DNA from: a virus
UHGV virus genome: UHGV-0138423
Reading direction: 5' to 3' (one strand)
DNA length: 42,842 bases
The notes under the pieces were generated by a model that ran no database searches, had not been told where the DNA came from, and saw only the letters and a program-made list of their open reading frames with translations. Positions 1 through 42,792 of this stretch are shown piece after piece. The position numbers and the translations under genes were made by a program. Position 1 is the first letter of the stretch, and each line of letters opens with the position of its first letter.

Positions 1-49
1 TTTTATAGATGGTTTCTGGCGACCTGCACAGGAGTACGGTGATTTTTAA

Positions 50-706
50 TTATTGCAATTGCACAAGAGTCAGTTCTCCCCCAAAGACAGCACCGGTATC
101 AATATAATGCAGGTTGCCAATATCCACGCGATGGCGCAAAGGTGTATGACCAAACCAGAAATGATCAGCACCTGCAATTCCCTGCCCTTTTTGGCGTTCA
201 CCTAATCGCGAGCGGCTCCACAAGACCTGATGCAAATCGACGTCCTTTTGCCATTCATAGACATCATCTGGATAATCGGCATGAGCAATAACATGTTTGC
301 CGGTGCGACTGTGTAATTCAAGAATAAAGGGCAAATGCTGACATTTTTCCAGCGCCGTTTTCGCTTGTTTCTGTTGATTATCTGCCAGCGCAATAAACCA
401 GTCGCCGCCATTTATCAACCATAAAGACATCTGCCGGGATGCCAGCGCATCCATCGCCATCTGTTCATGATTGCCTCTTACCGCACGAACCCAATGTTGT
501 TCCAGTAACTGCAGGCAACGTAAACTTTGCGGCCCACGATCGATAACGTCTCCCACTGAGATAAGTAAATCTCGCCACGGATCAAAACGACAATGCCATA
601 ATTTGCGGCGCAACTGCTCAAGACAACCGTGTATATCGCCTGAAAGCCAGATATGTCGCCATTGATGACCCGCAATTCTCTGATAAACGGGCGCAGGCTG
701 TTTCAT
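50..706 (-). CDS. prpA: Serine/threonine protein phosphatase 1 (host chromosomal gene)
   Basis: Translation begins MKQPAPVYQRIAGHQWRHIWLSGDIHGCLEQ and carries metallophosphatase motifs (GDxxDRG, GNHE); matches E. coli PrpA as I recall it. ATG at 704-706 preferred over the TTG at 707-709 used by the ORF track. Confidence 0.85.
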   Translation of the reverse strand: MKQPAPVYQRIAGHQWRHIWLSGDIHGCLEQLRRKLWHCRFDPWRDLLISVGDVIDRGPQSLRCLQLLEQHWVRAVRGNHEQMAMDALASRQMSLWLINGGDWFIALADNQQKQAKTALEKCQHLPFILELHSRTGKHVIAHADYPDDVYEWQKDVDLHQVLWSRSRLGERQKGQGIAGADHFWFGHTPLRHRVDIGNLHYIDTGAVFGGELTLVQLQ

Positions 707-840
707 CAATATTTTCCTCCCGCGCTAAAGATCACATAATCTTAACAAGAATGTTAAAAAACGCTGGACTCAGACAGTAGAGTGTGTGTTATGGTTGACT
801 ATAAAGTCAGCGAAGGGAATGCTTCTGGCTTTTAACAGAT

Positions 841-866
841 AAAAAGAGACCGAACACGATTCCTGT
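841..866 (-). ncRNA. sdsR: Probable 3'-terminal remnant (terminator arm plus U-run) of the host sRNA SdsR/RyeB; marks the host side of the prophage junction
   Basis: Minus-strand reading ...CAGGAAUCGUGUUCGGUCUCUUUUU closely matches the 3' end of E. coli SdsR as I remember it (...ACAGGAAUCGUAUUCGGUCUCUUUUU). Sequence further 5' (plus 867 onward) shows no resemblance to SdsR. prpA is the known chromosomal neighbour of sdsR/ryeA. Confidence 0.4.
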
Positions 867-1523
867 TTTCGTCAACAAACAACAAAATCTTTTAGAATTA
901 ATGTGTTAAATAAATTTATGCTCATCTTTTAATCCCTAACACATACCATTACATATTAATACATTCAATTAGTTACCATTTTTTTCGAGTTTTTTAGAGA
1001 AATTTTCGGGAATATTTCAGATCAATCCATGCATACACAAGCAATTCCTGTATTGAATAATTCCGTAGCAATTATGTAAAATCACCTCCGGCTGATTTTC
1101 ATTCAAACTCGCGCTATCGAACGTCCATCAGCCAGCCGTGGCACGTTCTTGCATACGACGTGCTACGGTTTCATTTATCTCCGACTGGAAACTTCTTATA
1201 CAAAGTCGATACGCCAACATCATAGATGATCGCCTACTGGTGGAACTTATATATAAAGCAATAATGACCAAACTTTACAGGCGGAGAAGAGCCGCTTCTT
1301 TAAACTTTCCTCAATAACAGCATTACTTGTATAATGCATCAGTTCACAATAGAAAAATGCATACTGCTATGTTGCCCGGATCATCACGGGCATTTTTTAT
1401 CCACCCTACCACGACATATTCATACGCTGCCACACAGAACATTTCAATCCACCAGTATGTTTCCGGTGTTTCACTCTCAGCAACAAACAACAGGAGAACG
1501 CATAATCGCAGCATAAAATGCAT

Positions 1524-1554
1524 GATGTAAGGAGCTTATATCGCTCCTTACATT
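1524..1554 (-). terminator. Hairpin immediately downstream of the tail fiber gene (possible bidirectional terminator)
   Basis: Inverted repeat GTAAGGAGC-(7 nt)-GCTCCTTAC, extendable to 11-12 bp, flanked by A/T-rich sequence on both sides. Confidence 0.5.
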
Positions 1555-1562
1555 AATATTAT

Positions 1563-3986
1563 TCACTGGCCAGACAGCGATGCCAGCATGAAATAATGCA
1601 GCTCATCATTCCTTACAGACATTATTTCACCAGCCTCCCTGACCAGCTTGCGCTCTCCGGTATCGTATTCTTCCATTGTAAGGAGTCCGTCAGGACCAAG
1701 CTCCATACGAGTCCCGTAAACCACTTCATATTCTGCCGGATATTCATCACGACACAAAATACCGTAATCAAAAGCGTCCAGCCCTTCCTCAGAGAAGACC
1801 TTCTGTACGTCCTGAGCAATCACTCCTACATGCCATCTGGCTGCGTTCCCTTTGCTGGACACTGCATCCCTGAAACGGAACCGACAGATATACCCGAGCA
1901 GCTTTCTGGCAACCCTTTTTTCTGCATCCGACAGAATTGTTTCGTCCTGTTTATGAGTCCGGTCTGATGTACTGATACTTCCCGTAGCTGAATAAACCTG
2001 TGCGGGTCGCCATGAGGCATAACCGATCGAATACGTATTATCTGTATAAGGGCGGAGATTTCCTGATGAATCTATGCGCCATCTCTTTTCTCCTCCTGTG
2101 GCATTTGCATCCTGATTCGTTGCAAAATCAATCACTGTCGCTGACCTGAACACAGATGAACCACCGCCAATTACCAGCGTGTTATTCCCCTCTGATGCCT
2201 GTTGGTCAACTACCAGTATTTTATCCTGATTTTTACCTGAACCACTTTTCGAGGCAGCGATAATACGATTAAACTGATCCTCACCATCGCTCTTTTGTGC
2301 GATGGTGATAACATTGGACCAGATTGCCTCTCTTTGTCGCTGAAAACCATATTCTCCGCTGTCTGTAGTGACAGCTTTATATTTTATTCCACCTTCAGCT
2401 GACTCCTGCGTTATATAGAATGTCTGGTTATTAGCATTCTTGATGAACACATAATTGTCAGCAGGAATGTCATTTCCACTCAGATCTTTAATCGGTGTCG
2501 TGGTTGTATGCAGACAAAACCATTTCTGACTCACAGAACGCATATATGCCAGAATTTCAGACAGGGATGTGAATACCGTCCCCAACACCGGGTTTACCAA
2601 CCCCTGGGCACTACGGGGAAATGTTCCAATACTGGCATGAGACACATCAAACCCCGTGTACAACCAGGCTGCCTGACGAAAATCAATAGCATCTCTGCCA
2701 GTACTGAACTCTTTCATCAGAACAATTCCTTTCTGATAAGCCTGTGGTAACCCACGCTCCAGAAAGATATAAAGCGAATATATACTGCCGCCGTCGTCAG
2801 AAATACAAATTCCTTCGTTCTCAATGCGCGAAGGTGTAAAACCCTGCCTGGTAAGCACATCTATCATTTTTTGGGGATGAAGAATGGATTCCTGCTGCTT
2901 TACTCCATCCGGAGAAAAGACCTTAACCCCCTGAAACTGGTTAAATCCGGCTGATGCCCCGGTATTAAAATAGCCACCATAAGAACAGGCAATATAATCG
3001 TCTCCCACAGCAATTCCCTGACGTTTTGTGAAGCGTCTTGCATAGCTGTCTGTGCTTTCCGTGATATATCCGGAATCATGCAACGGTAATGTGAATGTCC
3101 CTGTCCGACGAAACTGAAAATCATACACCGCAAATACTGTGCGGGTGATCAGGCCTCCCACTTCCGGCGCTGACTGTTCAACCACCCAGCGGTTTTTACG
3201 ATAGCTGAACTGGTTGTAAACACCGACATCATGTTCATCAATTAACGGCAATACTGAACCAGAAATTGCCCCATCAAGCGAAAACTGTTTCAGTAATCCA
3301 TTTTCTCCTGACATGAACAAACGTAATCCACCGTAATCCGTTGTCACCACAAGGCCTTCGCTGACAACGCCACGACCTCCATTATCGACATAATAATATC
3401 CCTCATATTCGCCGGATGTTGTGTACTGAACTATAACGTTCCGTGTCTGCTTTGGCTCAACGGTATAACTCAGATAGATTTTTTCTCCTGTCACCACAAA
3501 TCCCTGTGGATACATATATTCCGCACCAGACTGAGCAGCCAGCACCGTATCGTAGTCCGGGAATAATAACGGCAATTCCATTAAGACACTACGGGAATGG
3601 TTAGTGTACAGATTGTTCAATGAACCAGCTTTTACATCCTGTAACCCCAGATTTTCAAGAGCGCGTTCTACCGTGCCATCCGATTTGATATCGCCAAACG
3701 GATTCTTGCGGCTCAGGTATTCAACAGCAAACCCCGATCCCAGCAATTCAACAAAACCGGGCAGATCACCATTATCAAGCACATCCCGTTGCGTTTTATC
3801 ACTTACAAACTGGGCCAGAGCTGCAGCAATAAAGCTGGCCTGCCGAATAACCTTATTGACTTGCGCACTGGATGCTTTACCTGCTGTAAATCCGGATAAA
3901 AGCGCAGGCAACGCTTCCCATTCCTCCTGCGACATAACATTGGCATTTTTACCCGTTGCGAATGCTTTAAAGTCATTTTTTGCCAT
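1563..3986 (-). CDS. Tail fiber / tailspike protein with C-terminal intramolecular chaperone (peptidase S74-like) domain
   Basis: 807 codons from the ATG at 3984-3986 (MAKNDFKAF...), overlapping the upstream stop as TGATG. C-terminal ~110 aa (..RVARKLLGYICRFRFRD...HVGVIAQDVQKVFSEEGLDAFDYGIL...) resembles the self-cleaving chaperone domain of endosialidase-type tail fibers. Last gene of the tail operon. Confidence 0.75.
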   Translation of the reverse strand: MAKNDFKAFATGKNANVMSQEEWEALPALLSGFTAGKASSAQVNKVIRQASFIAAALAQFVSDKTQRDVLDNGDLPGFVELLGSGFAVEYLSRKNPFGDIKSDGTVERALENLGLQDVKAGSLNNLYTNHSRSVLMELPLLFPDYDTVLAAQSGAEYMYPQGFVVTGEKIYLSYTVEPKQTRNVIVQYTTSGEYEGYYYVDNGGRGVVSEGLVVTTDYGGLRLFMSGENGLLKQFSLDGAISGSVLPLIDEHDVGVYNQFSYRKNRWVVEQSAPEVGGLITRTVFAVYDFQFRRTGTFTLPLHDSGYITESTDSYARRFTKRQGIAVGDDYIACSYGGYFNTGASAGFNQFQGVKVFSPDGVKQQESILHPQKMIDVLTRQGFTPSRIENEGICISDDGGSIYSLYIFLERGLPQAYQKGIVLMKEFSTGRDAIDFRQAAWLYTGFDVSHASIGTFPRSAQGLVNPVLGTVFTSLSEILAYMRSVSQKWFCLHTTTTPIKDLSGNDIPADNYVFIKNANNQTFYITQESAEGGIKYKAVTTDSGEYGFQRQREAIWSNVITIAQKSDGEDQFNRIIAASKSGSGKNQDKILVVDQQASEGNNTLVIGGGSSVFRSATVIDFATNQDANATGGEKRWRIDSSGNLRPYTDNTYSIGYASWRPAQVYSATGSISTSDRTHKQDETILSDAEKRVARKLLGYICRFRFRDAVSSKGNAARWHVGVIAQDVQKVFSEEGLDAFDYGILCRDEYPAEYEVVYGTRMELGPDGLLTMEEYDTGERKLVREAGEIMSVRNDELHYFMLASLSGQ

Positions 3987-4666
3987 CAGAGTAATACTCC
4001 CCATGCCCCTACATCAAAACCACTGATAAATTCGTTATCCATATCAAAACCAAAAAATTTTGAACCTTCCGATGGGGTTTCCACCGAAGGTGTTTCTATG
4101 CCACCCGCCCACACCCCGGCGGCTTTTACTGTGAGATATCCCTGTTTAATTACAGCAATTAACTCACGCGATACATCTGAAATATCAGTATCAGGAAAGA
4201 CCCAGACCGATATCGTCATGTCCTGGTTATCGACAATCTGCATTCGCAGCCCGGATCCTGCTGTCGCCGTGTCAAGAATTGCCGGAAGCGAATCATTCCG
4301 TCCGTCCCAGTTATTAATCGCAATCTTCGCTTTAAGGATGACACGATAAGTTTCATCGCTGAGGTACATGTATCCGGAATCAGGATCATATGGCCCCTGC
4401 CATACCCCCTGATCATATCCAAGCCCGTCGGTATCCCAGCTGAAATAGACACCTGAGATAGACTGGCTGACAACACGGCTACGTCCGATCCACAATCCCA
4501 GAATGTCAAGTTGCACACCAACCGCAGAGTCAATATCAAATGCAGTAATCAGCCCTCTGGTGGCAGCCGCAACATCAATAAGCGGCCGGGTCATCAGATC
4601 AACATGCGCAAGAAATTTAGGTTTGGTGGCGTGGTAGTTCGTGATTAGTTCGGTGTATTTGCTCAT
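3986..4666 (-). CDS. Baseplate/tail protein (gpI-like position, between baseplate J and tail fiber)
   Basis: 226-codon ORF, translationally coupled to the J-like gene; position equals P2 gpI / Mu gp48. Family assignment from synteny only. Confidence 0.5.
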   Translation of the reverse strand: MSKYTELITNYHATKPKFLAHVDLMTRPLIDVAAATRGLITAFDIDSAVGVQLDILGLWIGRSRVVSQSISGVYFSWDTDGLGYDQGVWQGPYDPDSGYMYLSDETYRVILKAKIAINNWDGRNDSLPAILDTATAGSGLRMQIVDNQDMTISVWVFPDTDISDVSRELIAVIKQGYLTVKAAGVWAGGIETPSVETPSEGSKFFGFDMDNEFISGFDVGAWGVLL

Positions 4667-5862
4667 GACTCCACCGTTATAACGATATTTTCCGGGGTAC
4701 AGGACGCAGATTCGTTATATCTGATATCAATGTTTGATGACGACAAAGCCCCCGGGGATTTCCCAATCGTCAGTTCCTGAATATCGTAATAGCGAGCATT
4801 CCCGCCACTCACCACGCCAAGATTCGCCGGTGAGTAAATGCGACTTAAAAGGACCGAATCACCAATCGTCAGACTATTGATATAGTCGGAAATAGCCTGC
4901 TGGATCTGCTGCCCTATCTGTGAGGTATAACCCGTAAAAACTTTTAATTTAATCCGGGCATAAACAGGCACATCACTGGAACGCGAGAATTTGATTACAT
5001 GGGGATTGCCGTATTTATCCGGAACCGTAACGGATGTTGTACCGTGAGTGGCTGTCCCCTGGCCTTTATTCCCTCTGATAGCCTGAGCAATATCCGTCAC
5101 ATCACCGCCATCCACAATTACAGCAACAGAGTGTGGCGGTAACCCGTTACCGTCCTCCGAACCAGTATCGTTTTCATAGAGTTTGTGGCGGGTTACACCG
5201 GTAACATTAGAAACAGCACCATCCAGTGCTTCAAATGGGGTTATTGATGGCAACGCAACACTTTGCGACTGGCGGATACGTAACTCCGCGTCAGTTTCTG
5301 CCGGAGTGCCCACGGTAGCCGCAGCAGGATTAGTTACCGAAACCCAGCCACGGGTTGGCGTATTTATTTCAGTGATAGTTCCAGCCAGCGCCGCCACTGC
5401 ACCACTGACGGAACATGTTGCAGTCACCATCACTGTACCATCCACGCCGACCACCACTGAAGCAGGCAAACGCCATATCACATTATTACTGTCTTTCACG
5501 CTGCCATTAATGATGGTTGTTCCGGCAGTTCCTGTAAGAAGCAAATCAACCGTAGAATTCGTCGCGCCTTTACGTGAAATACCATTTATTTTCACGTTAC
5601 TGGTCAGTGCAGCCCCATAGCCGGTTGCCGGTGAAAAACAGTTGTAGACAGTTATCGCCGTATTATTGGCATCATGAATCGCCAGCGCCATCAGAGCCAC
5701 CATCTGGCCGTCTTTGCTGTCCGGTTCGAGGTAGGCATCACTGCCATAAATCTGCTGAAAATAGCTAATCAGGGTGCTGAGTATCGTCTGATAATCAGGC
5801 GCACTGATCCCCTCCGCGGTTACCTTTGCAGATAAACCGAGAGAATCAAGGTTCAGAGCCAT
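4663..5862 (-). CDS. Baseplate J-like protein
   Basis: 399 aa; size, position after the W-like gene and overall character fit the baseplate J (gp47/gp6-like) family. Confidence 0.7.
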   Translation of the reverse strand: MALNLDSLGLSAKVTAEGISAPDYQTILSTLISYFQQIYGSDAYLEPDSKDGQMVALMALAIHDANNTAITVYNCFSPATGYGAALTSNVKINGISRKGATNSTVDLLLTGTAGTTIINGSVKDSNNVIWRLPASVVVGVDGTVMVTATCSVSGAVAALAGTITEINTPTRGWVSVTNPAAATVGTPAETDAELRIRQSQSVALPSITPFEALDGAVSNVTGVTRHKLYENDTGSEDGNGLPPHSVAVIVDGGDVTDIAQAIRGNKGQGTATHGTTSVTVPDKYGNPHVIKFSRSSDVPVYARIKLKVFTGYTSQIGQQIQQAISDYINSLTIGDSVLLSRIYSPANLGVVSGGNARYYDIQELTIGKSPGALSSSNIDIRYNESASCTPENIVITVES

Positions 5863-6215
5863 TACGCCTCCGATGTAACAGTCGTTATTCCATAAAGAGT
5901 GTCGATTTCAGCGGAAAACATGACACGTCGGGTCGTGGTATCCACCGTCGTATTGAAAGAGAGGATTGATTTAACGCCCCGCGTTTCGAGGATGCGCTTA
6001 CGGATCGCCAGGTTGTAGGTTTCCGGCTTCTGCTTACCGAGCACAGACTGGATCCACGGAGTCCCTTCGGTGGTGTCGAGAAACCATTGCCCATACCACA
6101 ATTCGAATCGCGTTTTTACCGCCTGCGCCACGGCCTCCGGTGAGTTAATCAGCCAGGTGTCATCACCGCTGCCAAAGGTGTAATCTCCATCGGCGTCTTC
6201 ACGTCTGTATCGCAT
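5862..6215 (-). CDS. Baseplate wedge protein W (gp25-like)
   Basis: 117 aa ORF between the V-like and J-like genes; N-terminal region typical of the GPW/gp25 family. Confidence 0.65.
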   Translation of the reverse strand: MRYRREDADGDYTFGSGDDTWLINSPEAVAQAVKTRFELWYGQWFLDTTEGTPWIQSVLGKQKPETYNLAIRKRILETRGVKSILSFNTTVDTTTRRVMFSAEIDTLYGITTVTSEA

Positions 6216-6967
6216 CAGTTTACTCCGTCGGTATTGCTTCCACCACGCTGAACACCACCATGAGTGTGCGTATCATCGATTGGCTTGCCGTTAGCCTTCA
6301 CGCTACCCAAAAACTCAACAGCACCAGTGATTTTTGAAGCCACACCAGAAACAACAGATCCCACCATGCCACCCATCCAGGTTAACAGGCCATGAATGGT
6401 TACTTTCTCAGAAAAATCAGCCAGAGGGGCAACCACATCAAGACCACCCGGAGCGACAATTTTAATTTTCCGGGTATCAGGATTAAGCTCAAAATAGGTG
6501 CTGCCGTCGTCACTACGCAACTGTGTGGCACTGGTATTAATACCGCTAATCTTCCTTGCCTGCGACTGGGGACCGACAATACAAAAAGCATCCGATAAAT
6601 CATGCATTCTGTCATCGACCGGCTCCTGTATCCCGCCACTCTGCCACCAGAAATCAATACAACGATCGGCAAAAATCACCAAACATTCATCACCGGCTTT
6701 AACTGGGAACGTTAGCGTGCATCCTCCGCCGCGCGGGAATACCACTGGCACATCCACCAGCAATGGGTAATTTTGGGTAATGCGGTTGCCGTCATTATCC
6801 TTTTCAACCGAACGGATAGCAGGCTGCACAACTGCCGTCACCGCATCTGGATCGAATGACTGAATAATGCCAGGCAAGGCGACACGGATCTGGTTCTTTG
6901 TTGTTTCCCGTTCAGATTTGAATGTTTCGGCAAGGTCGCCGCTGCGGGTCTGGTCAGATACTGCCAT
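6215..6967 (-). CDS. Baseplate central spike / assembly protein V-like
   Basis: 250 aa with an N-terminal OB-like region and a Gly/His-rich C-terminal tip (..DDTHTHGGVQRGGSNTDG..); position upstream of W and J as in Mu gp45 / P2 gpV. Confidence 0.65.
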   Translation of the reverse strand: MAVSDQTRSGDLAETFKSERETTKNQIRVALPGIIQSFDPDAVTAVVQPAIRSVEKDNDGNRITQNYPLLVDVPVVFPRGGGCTLTFPVKAGDECLVIFADRCIDFWWQSGGIQEPVDDRMHDLSDAFCIVGPQSQARKISGINTSATQLRSDDGSTYFELNPDTRKIKIVAPGGLDVVAPLADFSEKVTIHGLLTWMGGMVGSVVSGVASKITGAVEFLGSVKANGKPIDDTHTHGGVQRGGSNTDGVN

Positions 6968-6985
6968 TTAGTAGGCTCCAGAAAG

Positions 6986-7010
6986 CAAAAAACCCGCCGG
7001 GTGGCGGGTT
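6986..7010 (-). terminator. Rho-independent terminator after the secreted-protein genes
   Basis: Minus-strand RNA AACCCGCC-ACCC-GGCGGGUU followed by UUUUUUG; lies between the stop at 7034 and the V-like start at 6967. Confidence 0.6.
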
Positions 7011-7033
7011 AAATGGTGTCTGCGATAAGGTTC

Positions 7034-7399
7034 CTACATTTTCGTGCAGGTCTTATAGATGGCATCACCACGGGGGCGATCATCTGCGTCTAAAATCTGA
7101 ACTATTTGTTTAATAGTTTTTGAATCGTTAGGGAAAACAGTTGTGTAGTGGTTATGCATCCCACCATTCGCCCCCCATACATCAAATGTGATGACCACCG
7201 AATCCCCCAAGTCACCGTACGGATACTGGTCAGTGGCTGAATTTTCTGTTAGCTGATCGTTCATTATGACTGCCTGTTTACTCATTGAGGCATTCACATA
7301 CATTACAAATTTATCGTCACCGCACTTAAAGCGCAAAACAGGCGCTGCAAGCACGCTATACGACATAAAAACAAGAGATAAGAGAGCTAAGCGCTTCAT
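7034..7399 (-). CDS. Small secreted protein (moron), function unknown
   Basis: 121 aa; N-terminus MKRLALLSLVFMSYSVLA is a typical Sec signal peptide; mature part has Cys near both ends; AT-richer than the flanking tail genes; followed by its own terminator. Confidence 0.6.
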   Translation of the reverse strand: MKRLALLSLVFMSYSVLAAPVLRFKCGDDKFVMYVNASMSKQAVIMNDQLTENSATDQYPYGDLGDSVVITFDVWGANGGMHNHYTTVFPNDSKTIKQIVQILDADDRPRGDAIYKTCTKM

Positions 7400-7411
7400 T
7401 AATCCCCCCTG

Positions 7412-7756
7412 TTAATTAACTTTTTTGCATGGGAAAGACCCGATGATTCTAGGCGCGTCCATGCTGTTCTGCAGAAGCTGGACGTTCAGGAAACGCGTTT
7501 CGGTGCCCGGTCGATGGATATACTCGAACCCATAATTGTGGCCATCTTTGGCAGGCATCAGCCCCATTTTGATCTGCATGCCTGTACCGTCTTTACCCAA
7601 CATTTTTACTTTTTGGGACGTTACTGTTTCGCCATTGATTTTAAATAATGAGTCAGGGATCGCATCCATACGAAAGTTGCCGCATTGCATCGTTATGGTG
7701 TTTGCACTTACACCAACAGACACTAACGCCAGCAATGAAAATATCCATCGTTTCAT
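7412..7756 (-). CDS. Small secreted protein (moron), function unknown
   Basis: Start taken at the internal ATG (MKRWIFSLLALVSVGVSA signal peptide) preceded by GAGAGGA; the ORF-track start is an upstream GTG. Mature protein has N- and C-proximal Cys like its neighbour. Confidence 0.55.
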   Translation of the reverse strand: MKRWIFSLLALVSVGVSANTITMQCGNFRMDAIPDSLFKINGETVTSQKVKMLGKDGTGMQIKMGLMPAKDGHNYGFEYIHRPGTETRFLNVQLLQNSMDAPRIIGSFPCKKVN

Positions 7757-7758
7757 TT

Positions 7759-8829
7759 CTATAATCCTCTCTGCAAAGCAGTGCTGGATGGCATATCCTG
7801 CGCACCGCGCGCTTCGCACATCATATCCATGTACCAGGCCTGGCCCCTTGTGTCGCCAGTGTACATAATCCCGCGCACAATATAAACGCCATCAGTTGCG
7901 ATGCTGGCCGTCATTTGTTTGGACACGGGCAGGGTAACGTTAGAGTTGCCATCTATTGTTTCGTCAAAGTAACGTCCCGCTGCTTTAGCAATATCGTCAT
8001 TCGGTAAAGCTGTTTTATAGATAGAAGCCTGATCCAGTTGAATTAGCCCGTTAACCCGGATGTTCGGATTAATAAGCGCGCGGACGTTTACGCCGTTACC
8101 GATAGTCTGCTGCGGCATGCCAATAAGCCCGGTAGCGCTGTTGAGCACAATCGCTTCATGAACATATTCGTTATTCGCCACCATCTGGCGCTGACCGTCC
8201 ACGAATTGCCATGTTGCGCCACATTGCCCGGCTACGTTATCCATTAGATGCCGCGTCATGCCAAAGAGTACCCGCCCCCGGGGGAATACAGTAGCAGGCA
8301 TTTCAGGCGTCAGGCCTTCGGTCGCGCCTTTGGCTTCGAAGTCTTTCATCAGCGCACGGTTTACATCAGCGACCGTGTAACCGGCAGCCAGCGTCTGTGA
8401 GGTTATACTGGTGGCAAAAGCCAGATCAGTATCTGCTGCCTGAATCAGGACGTAGGAATCAACCGGACTGTCTTTTCCTGTGACCGAGTAGCGAATTTCA
8501 CCGCTGAAAATCAGTCCGTAGTTGCGGCCATCACTCTGACCCACGTCCGCCGCGTCAACTTCCCGCACGGTCCCGACGTCGCTTGCCGACACCTCCGGCG
8601 CGATACCGTCGTAACCGGCAATCAGACGCACTTTCGAAAACTCCTGCCCGGTGATTCGGTTCACAGTATCTGCCGAGAGGTTATAAATTTTGATAGTCCC
8701 TACCCGGGACGCGCTGCTGATGTTGAACCAGTCGATCGTAAAGGTGACTTTAAAATCACTTAGCTCAATTCCCTGACCGTTCCCGTCCACAAGCTGCAGC
8801 TCGAAATGTCTCATCCAGTTCTGTGACAT
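7759..8829 (-). CDS. Baseplate hub-like tail protein
   Basis: 356 aa ORF between the small tail proteins and the spike gene; assignment by position in a contractile-tail baseplate cluster. Confidence 0.45.
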   Translation of the reverse strand: MSQNWMRHFELQLVDGNGQGIELSDFKVTFTIDWFNISSASRVGTIKIYNLSADTVNRITGQEFSKVRLIAGYDGIAPEVSASDVGTVREVDAADVGQSDGRNYGLIFSGEIRYSVTGKDSPVDSYVLIQAADTDLAFATSITSQTLAAGYTVADVNRALMKDFEAKGATEGLTPEMPATVFPRGRVLFGMTRHLMDNVAGQCGATWQFVDGQRQMVANNEYVHEAIVLNSATGLIGMPQQTIGNGVNVRALINPNIRVNGLIQLDQASIYKTALPNDDIAKAAGRYFDETIDGNSNVTLPVSKQMTASIATDGVYIVRGIMYTGDTRGQAWYMDMMCEARGAQDMPSSTALQRGL

Positions 8830-41462: not shown

Positions 41463-41750
41463 ATGGCAATGAATCTTGTGACACTAAAAACGTGGGGAAA
41501 ACTCAGATATCCAGATAACCCACCATCAATATCAACGCTGAGACGATGGGCAAGGAATGGAAACATTTATCCTGCACCTGAACTACACGGGAGGAGTTAC
41601 AGGGTGGTTCCGGAGGCTTTCTATATCAACCCAAATAAGGTTGATACCGATATAACACACCATCAACCTAATGGGCGACAAGGGAGAGACAGTCCGTTAC
41701 TGGAGAAGTTAAAACATGCAGCGGAAAAAATACGATCCCAATTTGCCTAA
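41463..41750 (+). CDS. xis: Excisionase-like DNA-binding protein
   Basis: 95 aa ORF immediately upstream of and overlapping the integrase gene. Confidence 0.5.
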   Translation: MAMNLVTLKTWGKLRYPDNPPSISTLRRWARNGNIYPAPELHGRSYRVVPEAFYINPNKVDTDITHHQPNGRQGRDSPLLEKLKHAAEKIRSQFA

Positions 41751-42792
41751 AAACTTAACATATCGAAGGAGGGACAAAGCATATTACTGGCGCAACCCTC
41801 TGACGAAAGAAGAATTTACACTAGGTAAAATTTCAAGGAGAGATGCAGTAGCGCAGGCAATTGAAGCAAATCATTATATATACAAAAACTACTCTCCTGC
41901 TGCCTTAATTGAAAAGCTTAAAGGGTTCGACTCATTTACTATGGCAGACTGGATTGAACGTTACAAAACGATTCTTATAAGGAGAAAAGTGTCCAGAAAT
42001 ACTTATAAAATTCGGGTAAATCAACTGGAGACAATAAAAGAAAAATTGGGAGAGATTTTACTGACAGAAATAACCACTCGCCATATTGCCGAGTTTCTTG
42101 ATTTGTGGATTGAAGGAGGGAAAAACACAATGGCAGGATCAATGCGTTCTGTGTTGTCTGATATGTTTCGCGAGGCCATTGTTGAAGGACGTATATCTCA
42201 AAATCCAGTAACGCCAACAAGAGCACCGAAAATAGTAGTTACAAGAGAACGACTGAAACTAAAGACATACAACTGCATCAGGGAGGCAGCAGATCAACTT
42301 CCGGCATGGTTCCCATTAGCTATGGATTTAGCCCTTGTAACAGGACAACGTCGCGAAGACATAACGAATATGCGGTTCAGTGATATTTATGATGATCGTC
42401 TCCACATCAGGCAAATTAAGACAGGAATGATGATTGCTATCCCCCTGTCACTCAGCCTTCCTGTCGCTGGTCTACGGCTTGGTACAGTAGTTGAACGGTG
42501 CCGCCTGGTAAGCCGGGGAGATTATCTAATCAGTGCCGGAATTAGAAAAAACAGCCCTGACGGCAGCATTCACCCGGATGGCCTGACAAAAAAATTTGTC
42601 GCAGCCAGAAAATTAACAGGTATCCAGTTCAGTGAAAACCCACCAACTTTTCACGAGATCAGAAGTCTGGCTGGACGATTGTACAAAGAAACATGTGGAG
42701 AAGAATTTGCTCAGCGTCTACTTGGCCACACATCGGAGAAGACAACAAAAATGTATCTTGATGAGAGAGAAAAAACGTACTTACTGCTCTGA
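41716..42792 (+). CDS. int: Tyrosine integrase (lambda Int family)
   Basis: 358 aa; N-terminal arm-binding-like region (..NLTYRRRDKAYYWRNPLTKEEFTLG..) and C-terminal catalytic motifs (..LVTGQRREDI.., ..HEIRSLAGRLY.., ..LLGHTSEKTTKMYLDER..) with the conserved R, H-x-x-R and Y. Confidence 0.9.
   Translation: MQRKKYDPNLPKNLTYRRRDKAYYWRNPLTKEEFTLGKISRRDAVAQAIEANHYIYKNYSPAALIEKLKGFDSFTMADWIERYKTILIRRKVSRNTYKIRVNQLETIKEKLGEILLTEITTRHIAEFLDLWIEGGKNTMAGSMRSVLSDMFREAIVEGRISQNPVTPTRAPKIVVTRERLKLKTYNCIREAADQLPAWFPLAMDLALVTGQRREDITNMRFSDIYDDRLHIRQIKTGMMIAIPLSLSLPVAGLRLGTVVERCRLVSRGDYLISAGIRKNSPDGSIHPDGLTKKFVAARKLTGIQFSENPPTFHEIRSLAGRLYKETCGEEFAQRLLGHTSEKTTKMYLDEREKTYLLL

Follow-up and report, generated by a model that had tools for sequence, protein, structure and literature searches.

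A tail fibre with a predicted five-bladed propeller head and a Peptidase_S74 chaperone, exchanged between Escherichia coli prophages

The gene at positions 1563-3986 on the minus strand of UHGV virus genome UHGV-0138423 (42,842 nucleotides; the whole stretch is called the window below) is, judged by sequence homology, the tail fibre of an Escherichia coli prophage. Our overall reading, to which we give a probability of roughly 80%, is that its product is a host-recognition fibre with a propeller head and a self-cleaving C-terminal chaperone, and that it constitutes an exchanged module. The open reading frame (ORF), the domain boundaries, membership in the Peptidase_S74 family (from sequence), the propeller fold (from structure prediction) and the exchange of the module are directly established by the analyses reported here.

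RESULTS

Gene model and domain layout

An uninterrupted minus-strand ORF of 813 amino acids (aa) occupies 1563..4004 in the ORF listing. The initial annotation of this DNA placed the start of the fibre at 3986, which is Met7 of the 813-aa ORF. The ATG at 3986 overlaps the stop of the upstream DUF2612 gene (TGATG), is preceded by a GGAG ten bases upstream, and corresponds to the start chosen by PGAP/RefSeq and to that of the homologous fibre of phage vB_EcoM-611R5. Because of this overlap, and because PGAP and phage 611R5 use the same start, 1563-3986 on the minus strand (807 codons plus stop) is the better gene model; residue numbers are counted throughout from the upstream ATG at 4004, that is, in the 813-aa frame. 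PHROG families of tail fibres and spikes match the protein with E values down to 8e-126, in keeping with the initial designation of the gene as a tail fibre. The domains are listed below, with confidence given as the predicted local distance difference test (pLDDT) of AlphaFold2 (AF2) models.

1563..3986, minus strand: tail-fibre (receptor-binding protein) gene, from the ORF listing, the TGATG overlap, PHROG tail fibre/spike matches and related records
3630..3986, minus strand: N-terminal baseplate-anchor domain, aa 7-125, assigned by homology; mostly helical in the model, at low confidence
3643..3713, minus strand: recombination junction, aa ~97-120, where blastn tracts overlap
2670..3596, minus strand: predicted five-bladed beta-propeller, aa 137-445, the putative receptor-binding head, with E216, R288, K327, Q329, E395 and E397
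2340..2669, minus strand: second small alpha/beta domain, aa 446-555, pLDDT 80-97; family matches extend to aa ~534; Foldseek
1968..2339, minus strand: stalk before the cleavage site, aa 556-679, assigned by homology to pre-chaperone regions; low pLDDT as a monomer
1965..1970, minus strand: predicted autoproteolytic site, codons T679 and S680, from alignment to T5 pb1 and phi29 gp12
1566..1967, minus strand: Peptidase_S74 intramolecular chaperone, aa 680-813, 15.3 kDa; Pfam PF13884, PDB, AF2 and BFVD

The C-terminal domain is an S74 chaperone with conserved cleavage residues

The Pfam profile PF13884 (Peptidase_S74) matches aa 680-742 over its full length (positions 1-58 of 58; E 7e-10, 39.5 bits against a cut-off of 22). 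A phmmer search of PDB sequences returned T5 pb1 with its chaperone (4UW8, 1e-16), the phi29 gp12 chaperone (3GUD, 2e-14) and the stalk and chaperone of endoNF (3GW6, 1e-13), and a profile built from fibre homologues matched the endoNF, phi29 and T5 chaperone structures with E values of 1e-22 to 1e-39. In the AF2 model the domain has helices, then a beta-hairpin and, at the C-terminus, a further helix, and the structure matches of this region in BFVD were S74 proteins. By homology, the C-terminal 134 aa (S680-Q813) are a true Peptidase_S74 intramolecular chaperone, which makes the domain longer than the ~110 aa originally estimated.

The T5 pb1 mechanism involves a serine, Ser1264, that is activated by Lys1269, and the bond between Thr1263 and Ser1264 is cut; the oxyanion hole, made up of Asp1239 and of Arg1250 from a neighbouring chain, arises only once the triple beta-structure is correctly folded (PMC4690869). 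All five of these residues have an identical counterpart in the fibre (5/5 conserved), where D655, R666, T679, S680 and K685 align with T5 D1239, R1250, T1263, S1264 and K1269 in a HMMER alignment. The T5 serine is Ala in the crystallised mutant 4UW8 and aligns with S680, as does the first residue of the phi29 gp12 chaperone chain. The fibre has the Ser-x4-Lys pair, with the nucleophile S680 at the start of the domain and K685 five residues on, and the S-D-x3-K motif is kept in 16/16 chaperone-bearing sequences of our alignment (A1), the window fibre included. Cleavage between T679 and S680 is therefore predicted from the alignment, and would convert an 89.1-kDa precursor into a 73.8-kDa mature protein and a 15.3-kDa chaperone. 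The self-cleaving chaperone of endosialidase type proposed in the initial annotation is thus fully upheld at sequence level by the S74 match at E 7e-10 and by the conservation of every mechanism residue.

The region that precedes the site, aa ~604-679, is homologous in sequence to the pre-chaperone regions of T5 pb1, endoNF, 9vvr, 7y5s and 6eu4, and gives a weak match to the last 37 residues of the Pfam model End_tail_spike (E 0.091). The stalk as a whole (aa 556-679) houses the "folding-sensor" residues D655 and R666, and is presumed to form a trimeric beta-structure.

The central region is predicted to form a five-bladed propeller

The central region, initially described as ~550 aa rich in Gly, Ser, Thr and aromatic residues, fits that description: aa 126-679 comprise 554 aa with 27.1% Gly+Ser+Thr and 12.1% Phe+Tyr+Trp, whereas 15 other ORFs of the prophage average 21.5% and 7.2%. 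Such a composition does not diagnose a beta-helix. Two AF2 predictions were made, run 1 on the whole fibre (22 sequences) and run 2 on aa 130-560 (80 sequences). Run 1 gave a pLDDT of ~90 for aa 137-445 and 80-89 for aa 460-555, and run 2 a mean pLDDT of 94.3 with a predicted template modelling score (pTM) of 0.92. The first domain has 20 strands, which the models arrange as five four-stranded blades. As modelled, the head is a five-bladed beta-propeller plus a small domain, and not a beta-helix.

The structures closest to this model are all receptor-binding proteins (RBPs). A Foldseek search of the PDB with the domain model placed those of phages NF5, 80alpha, phi11 and P68 at ranks 1-9 (Brochothrix phage NF5 Gp17, 9M7X; 80alpha RBP, 6V8I; phi11 Gp45, 5EFV; P68 tail fibre, 6IAB), and no solved beta-helix depolymerase or endosialidase catalytic domain was among the Foldseek PDB matches. 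In the viral structure library BFVD the top match was a Staphylococcus phage tail fibre (E 4e-35). The alignments to the phi11, 80alpha, P68 and NF5 proteins span ~480 columns, more than the propeller alone, and therefore the small second domain also seems to match; in the model, aa 446-555 may correspond to the "tower" domain that comes first in the RBPs of Staphylococcus phages. Sequence searches of Pfam, NCBIfam and the PDB returned nothing beyond the S74/stalk region of the fibre.

The propeller belongs to a large family with an invariant site

Searches of phage genomes by tblastn detected relatives over the full length (aa ~130-808) in several groups, namely Kayfunavirus isolates (46% identity), ~39-48-kb and ~72-75-kb coliphages and Salmonella phages (37%) and an Erwinia phage (32%), and, over the propeller only, in Staphylococcus phages (23-30%). 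With phmmer, run exhaustively against 1.84 billion cluster representatives at E<=1e-3, a propeller family was defined of 279 clusters, 104 of them at <=1e-30, whose common core is aa ~137-534. None of the 76 members scanned (window fibre included) has a significant Pfam model over the propeller. The S74 domain occurs in 16 members of a 66-member set, and the others join the propeller to varied anchors; the anchors of the family include T7-tail, BppU_N, Tail_spike_N, P22 head-binding, collagen and gp53-like domains, among others. Paired with such varied anchors, the propeller is thus a mobile receptor-binding module. A scan of genome contigs gave two loci only, in Atlantibacter and in Paenibacillus.

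Among 145 representatives, K327 is conserved in 99%, Q329 in 100%, E395 in 100%, E397 in 99% and both G343 and G359 in 100%, followed by E216 (94%), P166 (93%) and R288 (87%). The conserved residues lie at the start of predicted inner strands, a placement read from the secondary-structure string only, in the repeated motifs PQGF, SEGL, KRQGI and ENEGI. This pattern suggests that the invariant site formed by K327, Q329, E395 and E397 may accommodate a sugar, bind a metal or serve as an active centre.

Three family members from outside the window (P0126, P0127 and P0149) are 330-344 aa long, consist of the propeller alone and retain the K-x-Q-G and E-N-E-G motifs. P0126 and P0127 have signal-peptide-like N-termini and look like secreted bacterial proteins, and P0149 has a sub-threshold match to the SdiA-regulated/YjiK Pfam family (E 0.022). 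The P0149 match hints at a cellular origin of the propeller fold. Dpo52, a lead from the phage ST1UNAM homologue, proved to be unrelated, as it is a P22-type beta-helix spike.

The fibre module is shared between unrelated prophages

The two ends of the fibre gene have different relatives. Its N-terminus is 96% identical to that of the side tail fibre of phages vB_EcoM-683R1/611R5 and ~70% identical to Salmonella prophage fibres, and the anchor domain matches phrog_11303/1396. By blastn, window 7010-3643, from the baseplate genes to fibre residue ~120, is 96.6% identical to phage 611R5, and window 3713-1049 is 98.95% identical to a Mu-like prophage of E. coli strain S6, near-perfectly so from ~1130 upward, with seven differences. 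The two homology tracts overlap at 3643-3713 (aa ~97-120), and we therefore place a recombination junction there.

Of 5,426 complete E. coli genomes, 58 carry DNA encoding aa ~122-813 at >=99% identity, without exception on the chromosome, and only 4 genomes have it in a prophage context of the window type. In strain S6, the module lies in the Mu-like prophage next to zinT, is fused to a StfP-type N-terminus and is again the terminal gene. That the same cassette has been swapped between prophages agrees with the initial view of the fibre as a host-range module.

The prophage setting and the segment downstream of the fibre

The window contains almost a whole prophage, inserted beside pphA. Between pphA and the integrase, the minus strand carries a contractile-tail/baseplate module (Baseplate_J, DUF2612, membrane-puncturing spike and baseplate hub), of which the following features mark the ends and the sequence beyond the fibre, the final gene at the left end of the prophage.

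50-709: pphA
41716-42792: integrase, at the opposite end of the window from the fibre
1523..1555, no strand assigned: terminator-like hairpin with a 13-bp stem, starting 8 nt after the fibre stop
1130..1562, no strand assigned: non-coding-looking segment that travels with the fibre module, near-identical in the Mu-like prophage of strain S6

The initial annotation had stated that no separate tail-fibre-assembly gene follows, and this was confirmed: between the fibre stop at 1563 and the end of pphA at 709 there is no such gene, and all ORFs are <=67 aa. The sole minus-strand ORF of >=50 aa in this interval has no Pfam or PHROG match. It encodes a 59-aa hydrophobic peptide (1344-1523, minus strand; MHFMLRLCVLLLFVAES...) within the segment 1130-1562, and could be a small membrane protein, or the segment could merely be a spacer. 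As compared to S6, the segment has three differences only, all at its far end (1186, 1193 and 1212), and the 59-aa ORF is wholly identical. An Rfam scan of this end of the prophage gave no match. The chaperone-dependent Stf/Tfa type of fibre known from Mu, P2 and lambda-like phages, which has its assembly gene directly downstream, was considered and set aside, as no such gene lies at this place. No recognisable assembly gene (by Pfam) was found downstream of two homologues either, one in an HP1/P2-like prophage (P0003) and one in a P22-like prophage (P0006). Phage 611R5 does have assembly genes at the corresponding position.

Within the baseplate gene block, two small minus-strand ORFs at 7034-7399 and 7412-7819 (121 and 135 aa) have signal-peptide-like N-termini. 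The segment 7010-7419 is without a counterpart in the otherwise 96.6%-identical phage 611R5, one of the two ORFs matches only a PHROG of unknown function, and both look like moron-type inserts.

DISCUSSION

A modular fibre that would chaperone its own assembly

In this study, we arrive at a reading in which an E. coli prophage with a contractile tail uses the protein as its distal tail fibre, or as a short spike. The protein consists of five parts in the order anchor, propeller head, "tower"-like domain, trimeric beta stalk and S74 chaperone. The anchor (aa 7-125) would plug into the baseplate of its own phage. During assembly, the chaperone domains may bring three chains into register and drive the folding of the stalk, and once the stalk is correctly folded, R666 of the neighbouring chain and D655 would complete the oxyanion hole. 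K685 would then activate S680, and cutting of the T679-S680 bond would free the 15-kDa chaperone and leave a 74-kDa mature subunit. Self-chaperoning assembly of the S74 kind would account for the lack of a separate tail-fibre-assembly gene. The three propellers of the mature fibre would recognise the host through a central pocket lined by Q167, E216, R288, K327, Q329, E395 and E397. Of this scheme, we infer that the chains trimerise, that they are cleaved, that a ligand is bound and where the pocket lies. The distal part of the gene (aa ~97-813 plus ~430 bp downstream) is a mobile host-range cassette, one that has here replaced the short fibre/assembly protein/invertase cassette usual in this phage lineage.

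Is the gene intact, and is the head of a known enzymatic fold?

Existing annotation favours readings that differ from ours, and the initial annotation leaned toward another fold. The RefSeq/PGAP record of E. coli strain C25 (NZ_CP127314.1, locus L001) splits the intact fibre ORF in two, a 326-aa "tail fiber domain-containing protein" at window 1563-2543 and an N-terminal "incomplete" pseudogene at window 3638-3986, and leaves the propeller-coding middle unannotated. This C-terminal coding sequence and N-terminal "incomplete" fragment imply that the fibre is a decayed or fragmented pseudogene, which is very improbable given that the frame is open through all 813 codons, that the C25 fibre sequence is identical to that of the window (over window 1-8000, the sole difference from C25 is a 1-bp indel at 850, intergenic and outside the fibre gene), that >=80% of the module is kept at >=99% identity in 57 genomes, and that all domains fold confidently in the models with all catalytic residues intact. 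A right-handed, pectate-lyase-like beta-helix depolymerase, the fold initially suggested for the central region, is argued for by composition alone (27% Gly/Ser/Thr and 12% aromatic). AF2 and Foldseek give a five-bladed propeller instead, in two AF2 models at pLDDT 90-94, and Pfam has no pectate-lyase match; at the level of structure prediction the beta-helix is refuted, and we give it next to no credence. No more credence is due to the reading of the fibre as an endosialidase (endo-N-acetylneuraminidase), the name that GenBank annotations give to homologues in phages ST1UNAM, ZCEC02/08, PBM-2 and U8 and with which the endosialidase-type chaperone domain would agree. The shared S74 domain explains these annotations, the endosialidase propeller and beta-barrel Pfam families are unmatched (the weak stalk match at E 0.091 being all that was seen), and the PDB holds no sequence match to the catalytic part of endoNF. 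Likewise, the six-bladed sialidase propeller with nested beta-barrel that defines GH58 (End_beta_propeller/End_beta_barrel) was not found in the fibre. The fold check proposed in the initial annotation therefore had a divided outcome, as S74 was recovered (Pfam, PDB) and a pectate-lyase or endosialidase catalytic-domain signal was not. Homologues with the same head are named "endo-N-acetylneuraminidase" in records OQ469755, PV833354, PP213477, PV029541 and MT862763. This label probably stems from the shared S74 domain alone and is likely a systematic mis-annotation; the public annotation of the head is either wrong, as in these records, or fragmented.

Does the head bind or cleave its ligand?

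The harder question is what the propeller does, and here we favour lectin-like binding over cleavage of a sugar. By analogy with phi11 Gp45, the pocket may bind a surface sugar, a proposal that we consider somewhat better than even. The phi11 Gp45 paper assigns residues 142-439 to the propeller and proposes that Gln165, Thr211 and Gln330, along with Met164 and Met329, surround a cavity the size of GlcNAc (N-acetylglucosamine). On superposition, the cavity coincides with the active site of glutaminyl cyclase; the paper reports no enzymatic activity. The Gp45 motifs M164-Q165, M329-Q330-G and E385-A-E387-G lie near the same numbering as P166-Q167-G, R328-Q329-G and E395-N-E397-G of the fibre. 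Since the sequence-level link to Gp45 fails, as set out below, the correspondence of the fibre pocket residues Q167 and Q329 with Gp45 Gln165 and Gln330 is suggestive only, being one of motif look-alikes without statistical support.

The alternative is that the propeller is a polysaccharide-degrading enzyme (depolymerase) and the fibre an enzymatic tailspike, with E216, E395 and E397 together with K327 and R288 forming a catalytic centre in the central cavity, comparable to that of the five-bladed GH43/GH32/GH62 glycosidases or of glutaminyl cyclase. The near-absolute conservation of the E/K/Q/E/E set in 145 diverse representatives speaks for it, as do the propeller, stalk and S74 layout shared with endosialidases, the practice in the field of counting propeller RBPs as putative depolymerases by fold, and the many five-bladed propellers with acidic centres that are glycosidases. 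However, no Pfam, NCBIfam or CAZy-type family matches the window fibre or the 75 other members scanned, and the closest solved structures, the RBPs of phi11, 80alpha, P68 and NF5, are described as carbohydrate binders with no known enzymatic activity. The family signature and catalytic Asp/Glu set that mark the five-bladed propeller glycoside hydrolases (GH43/GH32/GH62/GH68) were not found. A further pointer comes from phrog_22693, which is named after glycerophosphodiesterase and matches the propeller with its profile positions 445-856 of 968. We take the glycerophosphodiesterase domain of these Staphylococcus phage proteins to be separate from the propeller; an enzyme domain located elsewhere would suggest that the propeller contributes binding and not catalysis. 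On balance, an enzymatic head appears unlikely, although we weigh it far more heavily than the readings of the preceding section. More doubtful still is its boldest form, in which the propeller would be an unrecognised phage carbohydrate-active enzyme family with an invariant Glu/Lys/Gln/Glu-x-Glu centre, common to phages of Gram-negative and Gram-positive bacteria and here degrading an E. coli surface polysaccharide. If that were true, the "binding" heads of Staphylococcus phages might be inactive or overlooked relatives.

Several observations count against the preferred reading of a sugar-binding, self-chaperoning fibre akin to Gp45. A profile search of the PDB with the propeller family misses phi11 Gp45 (5EFV), hhalign of the family against Gp45 gives a probability of 6.8%, the family hidden Markov model has no match among the tail genes of phi11, and the fibre aligned globally with Gp45 scores no better than shuffles (z 0.18). 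The link to Gp45 is thus one of fold only: the head would fold and work as a Gp45-type platform does, and the fibre is not filed as a member of its sequence family. Charged residues that stay strictly invariant in phages of very different hosts are not usual at a site of purely host-specific binding, and fit a catalytic or metal site at least equally well. The stalk has low confidence in the AF2 monomer model, as is expected when a trimer is modelled as a monomer, and the RefSeq pipeline splits the gene in two, even though its ORF is uninterrupted. A literature search found no experimental datum on the window fibre or on any Gram-negative member of the family, and papers on tailspike modularity and on K1 phages do not cover the propeller family.

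Implications

The fibre would decide which E. coli strains are infected by the window prophage and by other carriers of the cassette. Near-identical copies of the cassette stand in 58 complete genomes, many of which come from human isolates, and the cassette moves between unrelated prophages. Correct labelling of the head would improve both host-range prediction and the mining of depolymerases. If the invariant pocket is catalytic, it would represent a new enzyme family, and if it binds a sugar, a receptor head of the Gram-positive type would serve coliphages too. In both cases, a module that brings its own chaperone is easily transplanted in phage engineering.

Comparison with known systems

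The endosialidases of phages K1F and K1E (endoNF, 3GW6) share the plan of the fibre, with a phage-specific N-terminal anchor, a beta-propeller head, a beta stalk and an S74 chaperone cut at a Ser. Like the fibre, they lack a separate assembly chaperone, and their chaperone and the end of their stalk are homologous in sequence to those of the fibre. The heads differ, in that endosialidases carry a sialidase propeller of six blades into which a beta-barrel is inserted (GH58), whereas the fibre head has five predicted blades and no sequence or Pfam relation to it. The L-shaped tail fibre of T5, pb1 (4UW8), is the best PDB sequence match to the fibre (E 1e-16). It shares with the fibre the Thr-Ser site of cleavage, the Lys that acts as base and the Asp/Arg pair that senses folding, and the two chaperones are near-equal in length (134 aa each; residues 1263-1396 in pb1). 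The pb1 tip, in contrast, is a bullet-shaped beta domain that binds oligomannose and not a propeller, and pb1 is a long fibre of 1396 aa.

The phi11 Gp45 type of RBP has a five-bladed propeller of ~300 aa as its central platform, and the fibre has the same by its predicted fold. The RBPs of phi11, 80alpha, P68 and NF5 end with tower domains and are without a stalk or S74 chaperone, whereas in the fibre one tower-like domain seems to align with the Gp45 type and is followed by stalk and S74, and the N-terminus is the anchor of a coliphage fibre. The N-terminal stems of the Gram-positive phage RBPs, a coiled-coil stem in the Gp45 type, dock on the baseplates of Gram-positive siphophages and podophages, and their ligand is wall teichoic acid, which is absent from E. 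coli. Glutaminyl cyclases and the five-bladed YjiK/SdiA-regulated propellers of E. coli (3MBR, 3NOL, 3QQZ) have no significant sequence relation to the fibre, and are monomeric enzymes or periplasmic proteins and not virion parts.

Within its own lineage, the fibre is best compared to the side tail fibre of phages 611R5/683R1, whose first ~120 aa are 96% identical. The 611R5 fibre is only 264 aa long. After it come two assembly genes of opposite orientation, an alternative end for the fibre and a DNA invertase, and with the short fibre these make up an invertible-type host-range cassette at locus L002, 5019-7560. With an invertible-type cassette in one phage and a self-chaperoning fibre at the same position in another, the lineage therefore uses two quite different host-range strategies. 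Set among these systems, the fibre is of an ordinary kind, a modular receptor-binding protein of a phage that chaperones itself. What sets it apart is its head, which comes from a sizeable family without a model of its own and whose closest relatives of solved structure all belong to phages of Gram-positive bacteria.

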